This document shows, in pieces, positions 2,468 to 17,309 of a stretch of 40,463 nt of DNA; position 1 is the stretch's first letter; every line of letters begins with the position of its first letter. The notes below the pieces were generated by a model, which saw nothing but the letters and a program-made list of their open reading frames with translations, had not been told where the DNA came from and did not search any database. Both the position numbers and the translations under genes were made by a program. The stretch spans positions 1 to 40,463 of IMG/VR virus record IMGVR_UViG_3300020045_007692; one strand, given 5' to 3'. Origin of the DNA: a virus. Lineage: Duplodnaviria; Caudoviricetes.

Positions 2468-2581
2468 GACTATGGCCATTCCTAATCGTTGCCGAGAATC
2501 GCCCCTTACCATGCGAAAACTCTGCCTGTCAAGCGATAATGCAAAGACAGGCAGAGTCTGGGCAGGGCAATGATCCAAGCC

Positions 2582-2930: not shown

Positions 2931-3008
2931 CGGATTATCTCCTAATCAATCGACGCAAGGTTGCATCTATTGCGGCTAGTCTCTCACCCTAGCCGCAAGG
3001 GTTACAAT

Positions 3009-3524
3009 CTAGAGGCCGAGAGCGGCGAGAAGCGCATCAGCGTCAACTTCGCTCGCCGTCCCGCTTTCGGCCTTCATGCGCTCGATGATCTCCGCGACCG
3101 GGGCGATTTTCTTAGCCGTCGCCCAGCCGCCAATTTCAGCGAATTTCGCCTTGGATGCTTCGGGATCGAAAGGTGCCTTTTTCGCCTTGGCAGAGGTTTC
3201 CACCCATTCAAGAAACGCGCGAAGCACAATCCCGGTTTGCACTGCCGTGCCGTCCCCCCGCTTGGCTTTCCATTCACCATCGGCAAGGCGAAGGGCGATA
3301 GCTTCCATCGCGGAGAGTTTGTCCGATGGTGTGGCATTAGCCTCTTTCGGAAAGGCCGCGCCATCGGAGATTTTCTGCGCGAAGCCATGAAGCATCGCCC
3401 GGTTGCGAATTTCCTCACTAGAGGTTGTAGGGTTAAAAGAGAAGCTTCCCGCGTCCCCTACTTCAAAAACCATAACGCCGGTTTCCGTAATAGAGAGCGA
3501 GATAAGAGAATTTTTTCTAGCCAT
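3009..3524 (-). CDS. Hypothetical protein, paralogue of 8310..8882
   Basis: Shared HGxxQK[IL]xD, GxW, IIER and VDxDxLLxxLG motifs; GATTAGGA RBS. Confidence 0.85.
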   Translation of the reverse strand: MARKNSLISLSITETGVMVFEVGDAGSFSFNPTTSSEEIRNRAMLHGFAQKISDGAAFPKEANATPSDKLSAMEAIALRLADGEWKAKRGDGTAVQTGIVLRAFLEWVETSAKAKKAPFDPEASKAKFAEIGGWATAKKIAPVAEIIERMKAESGTASEVDADALLAALGL

Positions 3525-3575
3525 GAGACTTTTTCCTAATCTATCGGCGCGGCGAGATTGCCGCTCGATAGCCTC

Positions 3576-3604
3576 TATCTACTCAAGAGACTTCACCTTG
3601 TCAA
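3576..3604 (-). promoter_or_regulatory. Sigma70-type promoter (leftward early)
   Basis: TTGACA-N17-TAGATA upstream of ATG 3524. Confidence 0.65.
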
Positions 3605-4444: not shown

Positions 4445-4473
4445 TTGACCCTCACCCCGCATTGTCGCATCGT
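4445..4473 (+). promoter_or_regulatory. Promoter of the early small-gene cluster
   Basis: TTGACC-N17-CATCGT; same style as promoters at 8233 and 12366. Confidence 0.55.
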
Positions 4474-4506
4474 GCATTTCCACCATCAAGATTAGGAGCT
4501 TACCTG

Positions 4507-4749
4507 ATGGACGATAAACACCCCAGCAAGGCCGCGATGGATGCGGCTGAACAGTGGCTTTTTGAATGGGTAAAGCCGGGACCGGCGCAGACCCTCGCCG
4601 ACGCATTCGGCGCCTTCGCCGCCAGCCAGTCGGCAGCGTTGCTTGAGGCGTTGGAACTGGTGACGCGAACGGCGGCTTGGCACAGTTTCATGCCTGAGAC
4701 ACAAATCCTTATCTTCAAAGCCATAGCCGCAGCCAAGGAGCGCAAGTGA
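4507..4749 (+). CDS. Hypothetical early protein
   Basis: GATTAGGAG RBS; MDDKHPSK...; TGATG overlap with next gene. Confidence 0.7.
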   Translation: MDDKHPSKAAMDAAEQWLFEWVKPGPAQTLADAFGAFAASQSAALLEALELVTRTAAWHSFMPETQILIFKAIAAAKERK

Positions 4750-6056: not shown

Positions 6057-6438
6057 CCTAACCAAGCCGGATCAGGTGGAAGCGGTGGCGCGGCTTGAAA
6101 CAGCCCTCAAGCTGATCGCGGGAAGCCACTGGGAACGGTGGGGAATAGATCAAACAGATATTGAGGAACTGCCTGACCTCAGCGCGGAAGAAGCCATGAA
6201 GGTAGCACGCGATGCACTATCCTATGACGATGACCAACCTGTTGCCCAAGCAGCCATCGCCGCGATGCAGCCCGCTCCGGTGGTGACGGATGAGATGGTG
6301 CAGACCGTCCTCAGAGTGTTTAACCACGGCATTGTGCGGGAACCTGACGCGAAAAACCCGCGCGGCTATACGGACAAGTTCAAGCCTGCACTGATGATGC
6401 GCAGGGCACTCGAAGCAGCACTAGGAGCCAAGCCATGA
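6046..6438 (+). CDS. Hypothetical protein
   Basis: GGAGG RBS; MTVDLTKPDQ... Confidence 0.7.
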   Translation: MTVDLTKPDQVEAVARLETALKLIAGSHWERWGIDQTDIEELPDLSAEEAMKVARDALSYDDDQPVAQAAIAAMQPAPVVTDEMVQTVLRVFNHGIVREPDAKNPRGYTDKFKPALMMRRALEAALGAKP

Positions 6439-7919: not shown

Positions 7920-8236
7920 TGGGCTGGCATTACCTCCCCCCAGGGATGTTTCCCTTCGCCCTGCACGACGCCCATGCTGGGGCGGAGCTTAGCCCTATCA
8001 TCCTCAGAGAATCAAGTCGGCGCGCAGACCTTCTCGCGCTCGCAAACGAATTTCGGCGCTTTCGTTGGTGCATCCGGCAATCCGGGATTGAAAGCCCCGC
8101 GCTACAGCGAGAGCGGGCATTAGCCTATCGAGCAACCCTCCATGAACGGCGCAATGCCCCCTTTGCGCTAATCATCACGACCAAGCCAAAGCTCTTAGCG
8201 GTTCTTCTAGACCTAAACCCTTCACTAAAAAGTTGA
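7919..8236 (+). CDS. Hypothetical protein
   Basis: 105 aa, TGATG coupling, AAGGA RBS. Confidence 0.65.
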   Translation: MGWHYLPPGMFPFALHDAHAGAELSPIILRESSRRADLLALANEFRRFRWCIRQSGIESPALQRERALAYRATLHERRNAPFALIITTKPKLLAVLLDLNPSLKS

Positions 8237-8261
8237 CTATCGGAGCGCCGTCCCTCATATT
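8233..8261 (+). promoter_or_regulatory. Sigma70-type promoter
   Basis: TTGACT-N17-CATATT upstream of 8310. Confidence 0.65.
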
Positions 8262-8309
8262 CAACCTCGCAAGTCGGATCATCCACCTGCAACAAAAGGA
8301 ACCCTACCA

Positions 8310-8882
8310 ATGGCAACTGCCGCAGAAAAGACCCCCGTCACTCTCACTGATGGCCGCATCGCGCATTTCGGTGCGAAGCAGAAACTCGTCAAGACTACCA
8401 CCATCGCTGAAGACGGCACCATCTCCACAGTCCTCGACTTCCGCAATGGTGAAACGCGCACCTTCTCCCCGCTGGCTTCTCTCGTCGCCCGCTTCGCTGC
8501 TCACGGTGTTGAACAAAAGCTCGGCGATGCCATTGCTGGCGAAACCGACGACAACGATGCAGTCCTCGCAGTCGATGACCTCATTACTCGGCTGAACAAC
8601 GGTGACTGGACCGCTCCGCGCAAGTCGGGAGAATTCGCGGGGACTTCTATCCTCATCCAGGCTCTCGTCGAGGCTTCCGGCCAGACTGTCCAGTTCATCA
8701 AGGACTTCCTCGCGCCGAAGACCCAGGCAGAGAAGTTCGCTCTGCGTCGCAGTGACAAGCTCCGCCCGATCATCGAGCGCCTGGAAGCCGCGAAGAACGC
8801 GAACTCGAAGTCGGCTGTTGATACGGACTCGCTGCTCGGCGAACTCGGCATCGGCGGCGAGAAGGCCAAGAAGACTGCTTAA
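8310..8882 (+). CDS. Hypothetical protein, paralogue of 3009..3524
   Basis: AAGGA RBS, own promoter, shared motifs with 3009..3524. Confidence 0.9.
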   Translation: MATAAEKTPVTLTDGRIAHFGAKQKLVKTTTIAEDGTISTVLDFRNGETRTFSPLASLVARFAAHGVEQKLGDAIAGETDDNDAVLAVDDLITRLNNGDWTAPRKSGEFAGTSILIQALVEASGQTVQFIKDFLAPKTQAEKFALRRSDKLRPIIERLEAAKNANSKSAVDTDSLLGELGIGGEKAKKTA

Positions 8883-8990
8883 CTTCCCCCAGTGTCCCTA
8901 ATCCGCTGGGAGGGAAGAAGGACTGGGCAGTGTGAGTGGCGGAGAGGCGAAAGTCTCGATGATGCTGGTAACAACGCAGCACGCAGTCTA
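8883..8990 (+). ncRNA. Candidate structured RNA (hairpin, kink-turn with GAAA tetraloop)
   Basis: Stem CTTCCC-CCAGTG/CGCTGG-GGGAAG; GCGGA-GAGGC[GAAA]GTCTC-GAT-GATGC fits K-turn consensus; GACTG/CAGTC closing stem. Confidence 0.5.
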
Positions 8991-9033
8991 AAGAACCCCC
9001 GATCGCTCTAGCAGTGGTCGGGGGTTTTCTTTT
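8991..9033 (+). terminator. Intrinsic terminator
   Basis: AACCCCCGATCGCT...AGTGGTCGGGGGTT followed by TTCTTTT. Confidence 0.85.
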
Positions 9034-9054: not shown

Positions 9055-9083
9055 TTGATAAAAGGCCTTTGTTGTGCTATACA
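9055..9083 (+). promoter_or_regulatory. Sigma70-type promoter
   Basis: TTGATA-N17-TATACA. Confidence 0.65.
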
Positions 9084-9125
9084 ATGAGAAGCGCAATCCC
9101 GCGCAGATTAGGAACCTCTCCCCCC

Positions 9126-9308
9126 ATGACTAGAAAAGACTATGAGCTGATAGCTCTAGCCCTGAGGTCCATCATGGCCTCTCCCAGAGAAAGCCGCACC
9201 AACGGGCTGCTTCTGAATGCTTTTGTCAGTCGTCTTGAGCGGCAGGCGAACTTCGATTCCAGCAAGTTCACGAAAGTCGTCTATCAGACAGGAGCTTCCA
9301 ATGACTGA
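9126..9308 (+). CDS. Hypothetical protein
   Basis: MTRKDYELIA...NFDSSKF; GATTAGGA RBS. Confidence 0.7.
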   Translation: MTRKDYELIALALRSIMASPRESRTNGLLLNAFVSRLERQANFDSSKFTKVVYQTGASND

Positions 9309-9810: not shown

Positions 9811-9982
9811 ACACCTCGACGCTCCAGTCCCCACGCGGTTCAACATCCCTGAATCGGTCATTGCCCGCGTGAAGCTGGAACTCTACTCCGACCTTGAAGG
9901 CAGAGTGCCTTATGGCGTGATGTCTGCTCTCGTCACGAAGCTCCTCAACGACTGGCTGAAAGAAAGGCTTGGTGAAGCATGA
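9797..9982 (+). CDS. Putative ribbon-helix-helix DNA-binding protein
   Basis: TRFNIPESVIARVK...MSALVTKLLNDWL beta-alpha-alpha pattern; AGGAGG RBS. Confidence 0.55.
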   Translation: MVRIKHLDAPVPTRFNIPESVIARVKLELYSDLEGRVPYGVMSALVTKLLNDWLKERLGEA

Positions 9983-10470: not shown

Positions 10471-11856
10471 ATGTCTGAACCTGCCACTGAACTCACCCCG
10501 ACTCCCGAACAAGCCGTTGCCCTTCTCTCGATGGAAAGCTGGCTCAAAACCGGCTACCAAGCGCCGGTAGGCGCAGGGCCTCTCGCTCCAACCCTTCTAG
10601 ACGAGCTTTTCCTGGATCTTCCCGCAACTGCAGGACTGAAAGGCCCTTTCTCCGGCCCGAGGTTCTTCTGCCTGAGAGGATATGCCGGAACGGGGAAGAG
10701 TTATTCCATTACCCTGCTGGCAAAGTCGGGACTGCTGAAGCCTAGTGAGATTTGCTTCACCGCGCCGACGAATAAAGCCGTGAAGGTGCTGAGGAACTAT
10801 CTCGACGGCGCGGGGCTGCAGGACTCTCCGAGCAAGACCATCTATGCGCTGCTCGGGCTGTCCCTCCAAGCCAATGGAGAAGTCAAGGAACTCTCCAAAC
10901 CAGAGGAACCCATCGACCTCTCCAGCTTCAAGGTCATAGTCTGCGACGAGGCCAGCATGGTGAACCGCTTCCTCATGGAGGCTGTGAATGAAGCCTTCGA
11001 CCACTGGAAAGTTCCCTTCCTCTTCATGGGCGATCCCGCGCAGCTTCCTCCTGTCGGGGAACTAACCTCCCCGGTCTGGAAAATCGAACCCTTTTCCGAA
11101 CTCACAACCGTCATGCGGTATGGTAATTCCATGCTGGACCTGGCAACGGCAATCAGGAAGCAGGTGGACAACCCCTTCCCGAGCATCAAGATCGAAACCG
11201 TCGCGCCAGTCTTCCGGCATCCTCGCGCTGACTGGCTTGCCCAGATGATGCTCAACCTCGAACTCTTCAAAGCTGGGGAGGCAAAAGTCATAGCCTGGCG
11301 CAATGTCACTGTTGACCGCTACAACCAGCTCATCCGCGCAGCCATCTTTGGCGCACAACAAGCCAAGCTCTACGACTGGCTCCCCGGCGATAAGATCGTC
11401 GCAACTGCCCACCTCAAAGACCTCGAAGACAACACCTTCATGAGAACCGATGAAGAAGCAACTGTCCTCGAATGCATAATCGGCTCCCATCCCAGACATC
11501 GAGAGTTTGAAATCTTCAACCTCCACTGCCTCGATGAAACCGGCAGGAAAGTCACCATCCGCACCCTAACTGCCGATGGCCGCTTCCACCTCAACAACCG
11601 ACTGAACGAACTCTCCGCCGAAGCCAAGAACGGGAAGAAGTATAAATGGAGAGAGTTCTGGCAGCTCAAGGAAGCCTTCAATGAAGTCAGGCATTCCTAC
11701 GCCATCACTTCGCATCGGAGTCAGGGTTCAAGTTACGAGTTGACCTTTGTTGACCTTGAGGACTTAATGGCTAACCGCAATAGAGCGGAAGCCTTTAGAG
11801 CCTTATACGTAGCCTGCACGAGGCAAAGGCGGGAACTTCATATCTGTGGAGGTTAA
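10471..11856 (+). CDS. SF1B (Dda/RecD-like) DNA helicase
   Basis: GYAGTGKS, APTNKA, DEASM, GDPAQLPPV, YAITSHRSQGS, LYVACTR. Confidence 0.93.
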   Translation: MSEPATELTPTPEQAVALLSMESWLKTGYQAPVGAGPLAPTLLDELFLDLPATAGLKGPFSGPRFFCLRGYAGTGKSYSITLLAKSGLLKPSEICFTAPTNKAVKVLRNYLDGAGLQDSPSKTIYALLGLSLQANGEVKELSKPEEPIDLSSFKVIVCDEASMVNRFLMEAVNEAFDHWKVPFLFMGDPAQLPPVGELTSPVWKIEPFSELTTVMRYGNSMLDLATAIRKQVDNPFPSIKIETVAPVFRHPRADWLAQMMLNLELFKAGEAKVIAWRNVTVDRYNQLIRAAIFGAQQAKLYDWLPGDKIVATAHLKDLEDNTFMRTDEEATVLECIIGSHPRHREFEIFNLHCLDETGRKVTIRTLTADGRFHLNNRLNELSAEAKNGKKYKWREFWQLKEAFNEVRHSYAITSHRSQGSSYELTFVDLEDLMANRNRAEAFRALYVACTRQRRELHICGG

Positions 11857-11857
11857 T

Positions 11858-12304
11858 ATGCAAAGACTTTGGGATAAAGTGCGGATAGGGGCTGAGGACG
11901 AGTGTTGGCCCTGGCTCGGGGCTACCGACGCTTACGGTAGAGGACGGCTAAACGTAAACCGCAAGGCCGTTATCCCCACTAGACTTATCCTAGAACTGGA
12001 AGGCTTCCCAGAGCCCGAGGCCCCAAACAATAAAGCATTGCATCAGCCGAACTGTCCCCCCGGCTGCTGTAACCCTAAGCACCTCCGTTGGGGCTCTCAA
12101 AAAGATAATATGCAGGATAAAATTATCAACGGGAAGTCCAGTCATTCGTTTGGTGCTGCTGCTAAAAAGTCCCATTTAACTGATGAGGACATTTATGCTA
12201 TCAGAGCTTCTAGTGAAACTCTTTCCTGGCTGTCCCGGAGGTATGGGGTTTCCGAGCGAAGTATCTGGGACATCAAGAAGAGGCGCTCATGGTCGCATAT
12301 CTGA
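11858..12304 (+). CDS. Free-standing HNH homing endonuclease with C-terminal HTH
   Basis: CWPWLGA...ALHQPNC..CCNPKHLRWGSQKDNMQD; GGAGG RBS. Confidence 0.88.
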   Translation: MQRLWDKVRIGAEDECWPWLGATDAYGRGRLNVNRKAVIPTRLILELEGFPEPEAPNNKALHQPNCPPGCCNPKHLRWGSQKDNMQDKIINGKSSHSFGAAAKKSHLTDEDIYAIRASSETLSWLSRRYGVSERSIWDIKKRRSWSHI

Positions 12305-15624: not shown

Positions 15625-16014
15625 ATGCTGCCGAAATCCACCCTCGACCTCGCGGAGCTGGCAATCAACTCCCTCTGCGAACAAATCTACGCGGCCAATG
15701 TCAAAGCAGGCTGGTTCCGCGACCCTATCACCCGCAGGAATATCAAGCGCGACCCAATGGTCATGCTTATGCTGATTGTCACCGAAGTCGCTGAAGCCGC
15801 AGAAGGCTACCGCAAAGACAAACTCGACGATCACCTGATCGACCGCCCGGCTATTGAAGTCGAACTCGCAGACGTCCTCGTCCGGGTATTCGAACTCGCT
15901 GGGTATCTCGACCTTCAGCTCGGGAAGTCTTTCGTCCGGAAGATTCTCTACAATGCCCAGCGCGCCGATCACACCCTCGCCAATCGCGCGAAAGAAGGAG
16001 GAAAGAAGTGCTAA
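15625..16014 (+). CDS. MazG-like nucleotide pyrophosphohydrolase
   Basis: TEVAEAAE...EVELADVLVR. Confidence 0.85.
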   Translation: MLPKSTLDLAELAINSLCEQIYAANVKAGWFRDPITRRNIKRDPMVMLMLIVTEVAEAAEGYRKDKLDDHLIDRPAIEVELADVLVRVFELAGYLDLQLGKSFVRKILYNAQRADHTLANRAKEGGKKC

Positions 16015-17309
16015 TCTCTGAACTCATCATTCCATCAAACCGTCAGCGGCAGGACTTCGATCCCGAAGCTCTGACTGACCTCGCGAACTCTATTCTGAAC
16101 CTCGGGCTTCTCCACCCCATTGTCACAAGGTGCACGGATCAAGGCACTTTCCTAGTTGCCGGTGAGCGCCGCCTAAGAGCCATCCAAGACCTTTGGGCAA
16201 TGGGGGAGCCTATCCGCCACAATGGCCGCTCATACCCGCCCGGTGAGCTTCCCACGGTCTCCCTTGGCGACCTCACGCCCATAGAAGCCGAGGAAGCCGA
16301 ACTCGACGAGAACCTCAAGCGGCGCGACCTCACATGGCAAGAGCGTTCCGAAGCCCTAGGCCGTCTCCACCGTCTCCGCGAAGCCCAGGCTCTCCTAGTC
16401 GGAGAATCCCAACCAATCTCCGCCACCCTCAACGAAGCCGAAGTCTCTGACTACTCCTCTGGACGTCAAGCCATCCTCCTCTCCGAACACCTCTCCAACC
16501 CCGCAGTTGCCGGAGCGAAAAATGTTCAGGAAGCCTTCAAAGTCCTCAAGCGCGAAGAGGAGCGGAAGAAGTCCCTCTCTCTCGCAGAGACCGTGGGCCT
16601 TTCCTACAATAGCTCTGTTCATCATCTTCACAACGCTGACTGTCTCGATTGGCTCGCAACCTGCCCTGCTAATACCTTTGATGCCATACTCACTGATCCT
16701 CCTTATGGCATGGGGGCTAATTCTTTCGGAAATTCCGCAGGAAAAATGACAGGCACTGACCATCAATACTCCGATACCCTCCCCCAGTGGAGAAAGCTCA
16801 TGACCGCCTTCTCCGTCCAGTCTTTCAAAGTCGCCAAGCCCCAGGCCCACGCCTATGTCTTCTGCGACCTCGACAACTTCCATGAACTCAAACACCTCAT
16901 GGAGTCGGCTGGATGGTATGTCTTCCGAACCCCTCTTATCCAATACAAGCTCAACTCTGGCAGAGTCCCCCTCCCCGAACACGGCCCGCGCCGCTGCTAC
17001 GAACTCATCCTCTTTGCCAACAAAGGCCAGAAACCCATCACAGGAATCTACCCCGATGTTATCCCCTGCAAGCTCGAAGAGAATCTGGGCCATGGAGCTA
17101 ACAAGCCAGTCGAGCTCTTTGTTAATCTCCTTCGGCGCTCTGTTCGCCCTGGGGACAGTATCCTGGATGCCTTTGCAGGTTCGGGGACTATCTTCCCTGC
17201 TGCCCACGAATGCAAGGTCTACGCGACAGGACTTGAGTTAAACCCAGAATACTACGGCATCTCTGTCAAACGCCTCAATGCCCTCGACGACGAACCGGTG
17301 ATGGTCTGA
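16008..17309 (+). CDS. ParB/Srx-domain plus N6A/N4C DNA methyltransferase fusion
   Basis: GLLHPIV..LVAGERRLRA..ENLKR; DPPY; LDAFAGSGT (beta-class order). Confidence 0.9.
   Translation: MLISELIIPSNRQRQDFDPEALTDLANSILNLGLLHPIVTRCTDQGTFLVAGERRLRAIQDLWAMGEPIRHNGRSYPPGELPTVSLGDLTPIEAEEAELDENLKRRDLTWQERSEALGRLHRLREAQALLVGESQPISATLNEAEVSDYSSGRQAILLSEHLSNPAVAGAKNVQEAFKVLKREEERKKSLSLAETVGLSYNSSVHHLHNADCLDWLATCPANTFDAILTDPPYGMGANSFGNSAGKMTGTDHQYSDTLPQWRKLMTAFSVQSFKVAKPQAHAYVFCDLDNFHELKHLMESAGWYVFRTPLIQYKLNSGRVPLPEHGPRRCYELILFANKGQKPITGIYPDVIPCKLEENLGHGANKPVELFVNLLRRSVRPGDSILDAFAGSGTIFPAAHECKVYATGLELNPEYYGISVKRLNALDDEPVMV

Follow-up and report, generated by a model that had tools for sequence, protein, structure and literature searches.

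The question raised by this locus is whether a short RNA loop behind a phage gene serves as an antisense address for the leaders of the phage's own genes and, if so, whether it reaches only its neighbour or also distant transcripts. The loop lies in the 3′UTR of the ORF 8310..8882 of a complete virus record of 40,463 bp (IMGVR_UViG_3300020045_007692, Caudoviricetes), which is called here the window and was analysed at its full length. A reading of the sequence alone had described at this place a hairpin with an open loop, a kink-turn (K-turn) hairpin and a terminator, and had noticed that the loop is complementary to the ribosome-binding motif of five genes. From this it proposed a 3′UTR-derived sRNA that shuts off early translation, possibly with the upstream protein as partner.

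The window encodes a family A DNA polymerase, a Dda-like helicase, Sak4, a primase, a portal protein, a terminase and a capsid protein. Neither an integrase nor a clear repressor was found among the 30 + 40 ORFs scanned, in which there was one sub-threshold HTH, at 9979. The genome also contains an N6/N4 DNA methyltransferase with a fused ParB-N domain (16008-17309) and, directly 3′ of the Dda-like helicase, an HNH-type endonuclease gene (11846-12304) which is likely a homing element. No phage with DNA similarity to the window was found in GenBank, and the nearest relative there is the uncultured spring phage MW202489 (capsid 69%). The features of the locus, in which the gene bearing the loop is referred to as the carrier gene, are the following:

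8233..8261, plus strand: sigma-70-like promoter TTGACT-17-CATATT of the carrier gene, likely start of the loop-bearing transcript
8310..8882, plus strand: carrier gene, a conserved phage protein of 190 aa with 416 homologs, whose 3′UTR carries the element
8883..8917, plus strand: hairpin 1, the antisense display hairpin, from the predicted fold; its inner stem is kept in the relatives L003 and L004
8895..8903, plus strand: open loop UCCCUAAUC, with the seed CCUAAUC at 8897-8903, complementary to GAUUAGG
8920..8989, plus strand: hairpin 2, with a consensus K-turn sequence (8938-8967), specific to this genome
8992..9036, plus strand: intrinsic terminator of 16 pairs, likely the 3′ end of the RNA

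Upon refolding, hairpin 1 with its open loop, hairpin 2 and the terminator all appeared as described in the sequence-only reading, and the predicted unpaired probability of the loop at 8895-8903 is 0.98-1.00. The folding z-score of the whole 151 nt, -4.58, is due mostly to the terminator (terminator -5.40; element without it -1.85; hairpin 1 -2.66; hairpin 2 alone -1.51). A motif count on both strands confirmed that CCUAAUC is the exact complement of the tag at five gene starts: of its six copies of GATTAGG, the window has five in the form GATTAGGA ahead of genes, and the sixth, in inverted orientation, belongs to the loop. Six copies are not above chance (shuffle mean 3.68; 16 of 100 shuffles reach six), and it is the position of GATTAGG, not its copy number, that matters. 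With a motif count near chance and a z-score driven by the terminator, the window alone is unable to settle the antisense question. Rfam gave no gathering-score match, either for the window or for the 20 + 19 loci from relatives, and E-value scans returned only terminator-level matches and no c4 entry.

The tagged leaders, which are the candidate targets, are located on both strands:

9106..9113, plus strand: tag GATTAGGA before ORF 9126-9308 (60 aa; homolog in L004), the adjacent target
9055..9083, plus strand: sigma-70-like promoter TTGATA-17-TATACA of the adjacent target operon
4490..4497, plus strand: tag GATTAGGA before ORF 4507-4749; promoter -35 at 4445
3534..3541, minus strand: tag GATTAGGA before ORF 3524-3009, a paralog of the carrier gene; promoter -35 at 3604
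2940..2947, minus strand: tag GATTAGGA before ORF 2930-2700, without a clear promoter of its own
2480..2487, minus strand: tag GATTAGGA before ORF 2479 (or 2467)-2276; promoter -35 at 2532

A recognisable sigma-70-like promoter is found closely before four of the five tagged genes, the exception being the 2930 gene, while genes 4184 and 8310 are promoter-led and untagged. Being small ORFs of no known function behind sigma-70-like promoters, the tagged genes are presumably early. Beyond the tag, the five leaders have little in common. The 7-bp duplex formed by the window seed is predicted to yield about -8.7 kcal/mol, or -12 to -15.3 kcal/mol with the stem opened, and the pairing energy for two untagged leaders is -6 to -7.1 kcal/mol. 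None of the five leaders ranks by energy among the best 16 of 1410 start windows, and three target sites are predicted to be partly paired in their own leaders (0.19-0.41 unpaired). Tagged leaders often open with a short hairpin whose loop contains GCAAT (13/60, compared with 13/177 coding windows), present in the window at 9091-9104 (plus strand) and 3550-3565 (minus strand); it is possibly a 5′ protector or a protein site.

The antisense question was addressed across the gene family. Relatives were gathered with a 40-sequence alignment, the loci being the best 80 of 123 viral and the best 80 of 113 metagenome sequences, and the stop codon was obtained in 161 locus sequences. After dropping L067 and the loci that were short, duplicate or without an automatic start pick, 119 loci were left, 105 of them at <90% amino acid identity. 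The downstream start was picked by ORF length and generic Shine-Dalgarno (SD) strength, blind to the UTR, and the score was the longest perfect complement of the 22-nt start region to its own UTR. The 190-aa protein gene was also found on six MAG contigs of mixed phyla, which are probably binned phage DNA.

Across this family, the loop co-varies with the leader motif in swapped-pair, position-wise and tree-paired tests. A perfect complement of at least 8 nt between the 3′UTR and the next-gene start of the same phage is present in 44 of the 105 loci, compared with 5.6% of swapped pairs, and no permutation out of 20000 reached the observed mean complement length. The result holds at stricter cut-offs (29/73 at 75% identity; 13/32 at <65%, with 5.9% of swapped pairs at 65%), and with a fixed 130-nt UTR, 61 of 90 loci reach 7 nt. 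The same-sense control was null (2/105). The remaining 61 of the 105 representatives fall below 8 nt, many of them due to wrong automatic start picks; the window itself was scored as a miss in this test for that reason and was later corrected by hand. The apparent true misses are L007, L015, L017, L090 and the cultured phage Mel-JY34, which has the gene family and showed no 7-nt match between loop and SD; in the cultured phages BUCT555 and ppBjS10J-1 the gene family is absent.

When the duplexes were anchored on GGAG in the leader and CTCC in the loop, 42 of 56 loci had a single candidate. In these, the spacer positions +1 to +4 are paired in 38, 37, 31 and 23 of the 42 (swapped: 32, 53, 38 and 30%), all four pair types are seen at +1, and pairing at positions -2 to -5 is near background. 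At least 18 different 4-nt spacer types occur among the anchored matching loci, and G.U pairs are not enriched in the loop/leader duplex. On the protein tree, the target changes 26 times, the loop 24 times and the joint state 28 times. Among 45 disjoint pairs of tree neighbours, the cognate combination exceeds the swapped one in 28 and falls behind in 6, with 11 ties; the same comparison for the own-gene control gives 19 and 23. For instance, in L003, whose protein is 78% identical to that of the window, the stem is kept, the loop is different and the leader has changed to match it. The RNA scaffold on either side of the loop shows no sequence conservation among relatives. In 60 loci with a match of at least 7 nt, the seed, when forced unpaired (median cost 2.2 kcal/mol), lies in a separate hairpin loop in 37, in the terminator loop in 17 and in neither in 6; its mean unpaired probability is 0.72 versus 0.38. 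A seed that is predicted accessible, complementary to a ribosome-binding site and co-varying with it has the marks expected of an anti-Shine-Dalgarno antisense RNA.

Several other origins of the complementarity were considered and rejected. Mimicry of the 16S anti-SD does not apply, since the pairing reaches into the phage-specific spacer and the window seed has no CCUCC. An inverted duplication of the leader is rejected as well, because complementarity fades beyond about 10 nt. The window loop does contain a YUNR U-turn (CUAA); this motif is not enriched family-wide (14/60 seeds, mean of 20 in shuffles), and a U-turn kissing-loop signature of the recognition loops was thus discarded.

Whether the loop acts in cis or in trans can be judged from genes lying elsewhere in the genome. 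In the relatives, a paralog of the carrier gene is located 1.7-6 kb upstream. When this paralog is on the opposite strand, its start matches the cognate UTR over at least 7 nt in 11 of 17 cases, compared with 19.5% of swapped pairs (3/20000 permutations); same-strand paralogs do so in 6 of 27 (326/20000, p about 0.016), and in tree-paired comparisons the paralog gives 13 versus 3. A match between the loop and an opposite-strand gene 2-6 kb away points to action in trans. The control regions, namely the start of the carrier gene itself, the helicase, the exonuclease, ORF 15092 and ORF 7515, were all null; autoregulation of the carrier gene through the antisense loop is rejected on the basis of its own start region. 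In the window, the paralogs at 3009-3524 (minus strand) and 8310-8882 (plus strand) are distant members of one family of no known function, and both end in a D-x-LL-x-x-LG-like tail. With one paralog a candidate target and the antisense loop borne by the other, a temporal hand-over between the two is suggested.

Tags defined by the adjacent gene also recur at further starts (1.9 versus 0.67 per locus, 42 loci), and in MW202489, a complete genome, the tag stands in sense orientation at four gene starts and is inverted once, in the loop. When distant targets were tested blindly with seeds defined by the loop, 46 matches were obtained against 26.7 expected (p 0.038, 38 loci); when restricted to promoter-led starts this test gave 3 against 2.0, too few matches to be interpreted, and the Wilcoxon p was disregarded due to the many zeros. 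The Sak4 start (14173 in the window) shows in relatives a slightly raised match to the cognate UTR (14/56, 50/20000), and in some lineages replication genes may accordingly belong to the tagged set. In L008, the 3′UTR (stop at 6065) displays two antisense loops: that of hairpin 1 matches the leader of the distant paralog, and the terminator loop matches the leader of the adjacent gene. Judged by these comparisons, action in trans appears well supported in the clade of the window and less so family-wide.

Regarding the origin of the RNA, a promoter similar to that of the window precedes the carrier gene in 80 of 97 relatives. Within the last 200 nt of the carrier ORF a promoter was found in 4 of 105 loci, no more than in the mid-ORF control (5/105), and an internal sRNA promoter is hence rejected. 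Since a promoter is conserved before the gene and none inside it, the antisense loop probably belongs to the 3′ end of the mRNA of the carrier gene, either intact or after processing, in agreement with the 3′UTR-borne RNA first proposed. As predicted for a 3′UTR-derived sRNA, it would share its terminator with the upstream mRNA and have no promoter of its own. Between the terminator and the adjacent target, a promoter is present in 31 of 60 loci, compared with 4 in coding controls.

The other end of this transcript is also structured in some relatives. In 26 of 100 of them (e.g., L001, L020, L034 and L109) the 5′UTR of the carrier gene contains a nearly invariant motif, GGCAYAMCRGCAAGCACC ... 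TGCCTGCC, which sits on a stem that varies; pairing of its loop with the 3′ segment beside the SD could form a pseudoknot, and a reduced form, GCAAG/CCTGC, is found at 8269-8290 of the window. The motif has no Rfam match and is possibly an autoregulatory leader, by analogy with T4 gene 32. In L065 and L068, a tRNA-Glu(TTC) lies between the stop codon of the carrier gene and the antisense hairpin, and its processing could release the antisense part.

The K-turn of hairpin 2 is a different matter. As described by McPhee et al. 2014 (PMC4382518), a standard K-turn consists of a C-stem, a 3-nt bulge, G.A and A.G pairs and an NC stem, and the window sequence contains all these parts: G8942-A8943, GAGGC-GAAA-GUCUC, the bulge GAU at 8958-8960, G8961-A8962 and U8963.G8941. 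The 3b.3n pair is U.G, the class that folds in ions, and a K-turn pattern with a C-stem of at least 5 bp arises in 7 of 2000 shuffles of the element. In this sense, the K-turn of the sequence-only reading stands as a sequence match, and it may be real as a fold. As part of a conserved system it does not stand: compared with L003 and L004, both of which lack hairpin 2, the window has ~75 nt cleanly inserted at this point, and K-turn-like patterns are not enriched in the UTRs of the family (5/105, with 2.3 expected). A viral scan with a near-exact pattern returned 0 matches to the hairpin, and a loose pattern returned 105, only one of them with a near-paired C-stem and folding unlike the element. 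Compared with standard K-turns, hairpin 2 is a single occurrence and belongs to no known host RNA family. In two relatives the same slot is occupied by the tRNA-Glu, and in at least five by a different hairpin that recurs among them; holding such varied inserts, it behaves as a cargo site, and the K-turn is outside the conserved mechanism. The recurrent hairpin, of the type GACAC-CCCGGAAAGACGGGG, is found in the 3′UTRs of L001, L032, L069, L119 and L137 and has no Rfam match.

Concerning the upstream protein, the 190-aa product gave no PHROG, Pfam or PDB fold match. Its predicted model, which is confident (pLDDT 83), matched nothing named, the best VIA Z being 5.1 over 47 residues, and searches of BFVD and Atlas returned only unnamed phage proteins. 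The suggestion that this protein is a partner of the RNA thus finds no support either way. TIGR-Tas and box C/D-type guide systems combine a Nop-domain protein with a tandem guide array; here no Nop chain was present among the fold matches, which does not exclude one, and the K-turn is single and not repeated.

Taken with a probability of roughly 70%, our reading of these sequences is that a trans-acting antisense RNA blocks the tagged ribosome-binding sites and produces a delayed damping of the presumed early genes. Upon infection, the host sigma-70 polymerase would make all these transcripts together, and the terminator-protected 3′ end would build up, either as whole mRNA or as a processed fragment. 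Its loop would then pair with the tag, over 7 bp in the window and over 7-11 in other members of the family, with a possible extension into the stem; the resulting duplex would cover the ribosome-binding site and hinder ribosome loading. In this way, the tagged genes would be damped after a delay, and the untagged, promoter-led genes 8310 and 4184 would be spared. The private letters of the spacer would give each phage its own address and largely keep host mRNAs out, and the K-turn hairpin would be a dispensable passenger in its slot. Of this scheme, the geometry, the co-variation and the layout of the promoters are observed, and we infer the expression of the RNA, its pairing in vivo, the repression and the timing.

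The same loop might also be an insulator acting only in cis, which pairs with the adjacent ribosome-binding site ~200 nt downstream on read-through RNA, with the adjacent gene translated only from its own promoter; the tag of the other leaders would then be due to the common descent of promoter cassettes. It is with the adjacent gene that co-variation is strongest and most general, 17 of 60 loci have the seed in the loop of the terminator itself and the blind test on distant targets is weak. However, opposite-strand paralogs track the loop (11/17), the five window leaders are alike in little besides the tag, in L008 it is the distant paralog rather than the adjacent gene that hairpin 1 matches, and in L066 the loop finds its match in the paralog and none in the adjacent pick, so we regard a cis-only role as unlikely but worth keeping in mind. 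Another use of identical pairing would be an exclusion or competition signal, aimed mainly at a second phage with the same tag, in which tags are specificity types as in the c4 immunity of P1/P7. Although the at least 18 spacer types, and their switches even between such close relatives as the window and L003, would fit this idea, drift of the tag with compensation accounts for the diversity without exclusion, and a lasting carrier state is not evident in a genome with no integrase or clear repressor among 30 + 40 ORFs; as the main function, this is distinctly unlikely.

Protein-based explanations fare worse. A role of the RNA in guiding or scaffolding a protein, either the 190-aa product or an L7Ae-like K-turn binder, which cleaves or occludes the tagged mRNAs, appears very improbable. 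The linkage of gene and loop is invariant over 35-100% identity, the window has a textbook K-turn sequence and the same gene has a conserved structured 5′UTR; nevertheless, the neighbourhood of gene and loop is explained by their common transcript, the K-turn is missing from relatives, the RNA scaffold around the loop lacks the sequence conservation expected of a protein-bound guide, and no nuclease or Nop-like fold is among the fold matches of the 190-aa protein, which does not exclude one. The motif could instead be a site that a protein recognises, either in the DNA or in a decoy RNA from the minus strand; the inverted copy would then be just one more site. RNA pairing is not directly indicated by G.U pairs, and in the available text of Pope et al. 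2011 (PMC3203893) the choice between protein and RNA binding of start-associated sequences is left open. Such a site is nonetheless extremely improbable, given that the inverted copy lies in plus-strand hairpin loops, often that of the terminator, that there is no signal of same-sense copies, and that one protein family would need to track at least 18 sequence types. Finally, chance complementarity in a C-rich terminator region, which a 7-bp seed and a motif count not above chance in the window might suggest, is rejected by the swapped-pair and tree-paired tests and deserves practically no credit.

A wider form of the antisense reading is possible, with the odds slightly against it: these lytic phages may possess a re-addressable RNA timer, in which the 3′ end of one mRNA, often its terminator loop, silences a set of early transcripts by way of a private tag located in the SD-to-AUG spacer, tag and loop being re-coded together in each lineage. 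This would explain the start-associated sequences described elsewhere, and it may double as exclusion of phages of the same type.

Among known systems, c4 is noted for its loop display and for the specificity types, or heteroimmunity, of P1 and P7. The c4 antisense RNA of P1/P7 (RF01695) is a structured phage RNA whose short pairing with genes of its own phage silences them (PMC8198154, PMC2864571); according to PMC8198154, c4 and its targets form a single operon (c4-icd-ant), and the RNA serves to maintain lysogeny. In the window, by contrast, the candidate targets are several separate transcripts on both strands, and the RNA would correspond to the 3′ end of a protein-coding transcript. The c4-icd-ant layout was not found, as the 190-aa gene lies upstream and no antirepressor or integrase is among the ORFs scanned, and the RF01695 covariance model gave no gathering match in the window or in 39 relative loci. 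Other precedents are CisR, a 3′UTR-derived sRNA acting on the cep mRNA of CTXphi (PMC13250501), the bacterial 3′UTR-derived sRNA NarS (PMC7038943), and ncRNA1/2 of PAK_P3, which are 3′-end phage RNAs reported without targets in the sections available of PMC10914365. Like these, as their sources present them, the element is a terminator-bounded mRNA 3′ end with no promoter of its own; CisR and NarS are described as coming from host mRNAs, whereas here the 3′ end of a phage mRNA would address the phage's own leaders through a private tag. The endoribonuclease RegB of T4 is reported to inactivate early mRNAs at the Shine-Dalgarno, at a fixed GGAG site (PMC3014915). It differs in being a protein nuclease, while the specificity of RNA pairing would be re-set in each phage lineage.

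The closest genomic precedent, as far as described in PMC3203893, is found in cluster K mycobacteriophages, whose start-associated sequence (SAS) likewise has a lone inverted copy. The SAS is there an extended RBS motif at the starts of non-structural genes, in which bases beyond the 16S-pairing core are conserved; it has 13 bp and 11-19 copies in temperate actinophages, and in four genomes a single copy of opposite orientation, not at a gene start, whose function was left open (PMC3203893). The likeness consists of an extended RBS motif plus a lone inverted copy, 5+1 in the window and 4+1 in MW202489. The differences are that here 4-5 copies are found per complete genome, the inverted copy is displayed in a loop within a 3′UTR and there is co-variation over many tags, while the available text of PMC3203893 gives neither hairpin display nor co-variation for cluster K. 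Kinship with the window tag is not implied: this tag has 8 nt and differs from the 13-bp consensus, and on inspection the leaders showed none of the 17-bp inverted repeats in common. No description of the element was found in the literature searched, and a prior catalogue entry is possible among the 10,006 viral RNA candidates of Fremin 2023 or in the supplements of Weinberg 2010, which lay outside the search. The element would act like c4 and the 3′UTR-derived sRNAs, and it is a member of neither named family.

In lytic phages that depend on the host RNA polymerase, the shut-down of early genes is known mostly from protein factors such as RegB of T4. The family described here would offer an RNA solution to this problem, with unusually clean comparative evidence, and its at least 18 natural loop/tag pairs are well suited to swap experiments. 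The question of the start-associated sequences raised by Pope et al. in 2011 becomes in this way directly testable. An ordinary terminator loop may at the same time serve as the seed of an antisense RNA, and the loops and tags of these phages would constitute a natural set of short, possibly orthogonal translational repressors.
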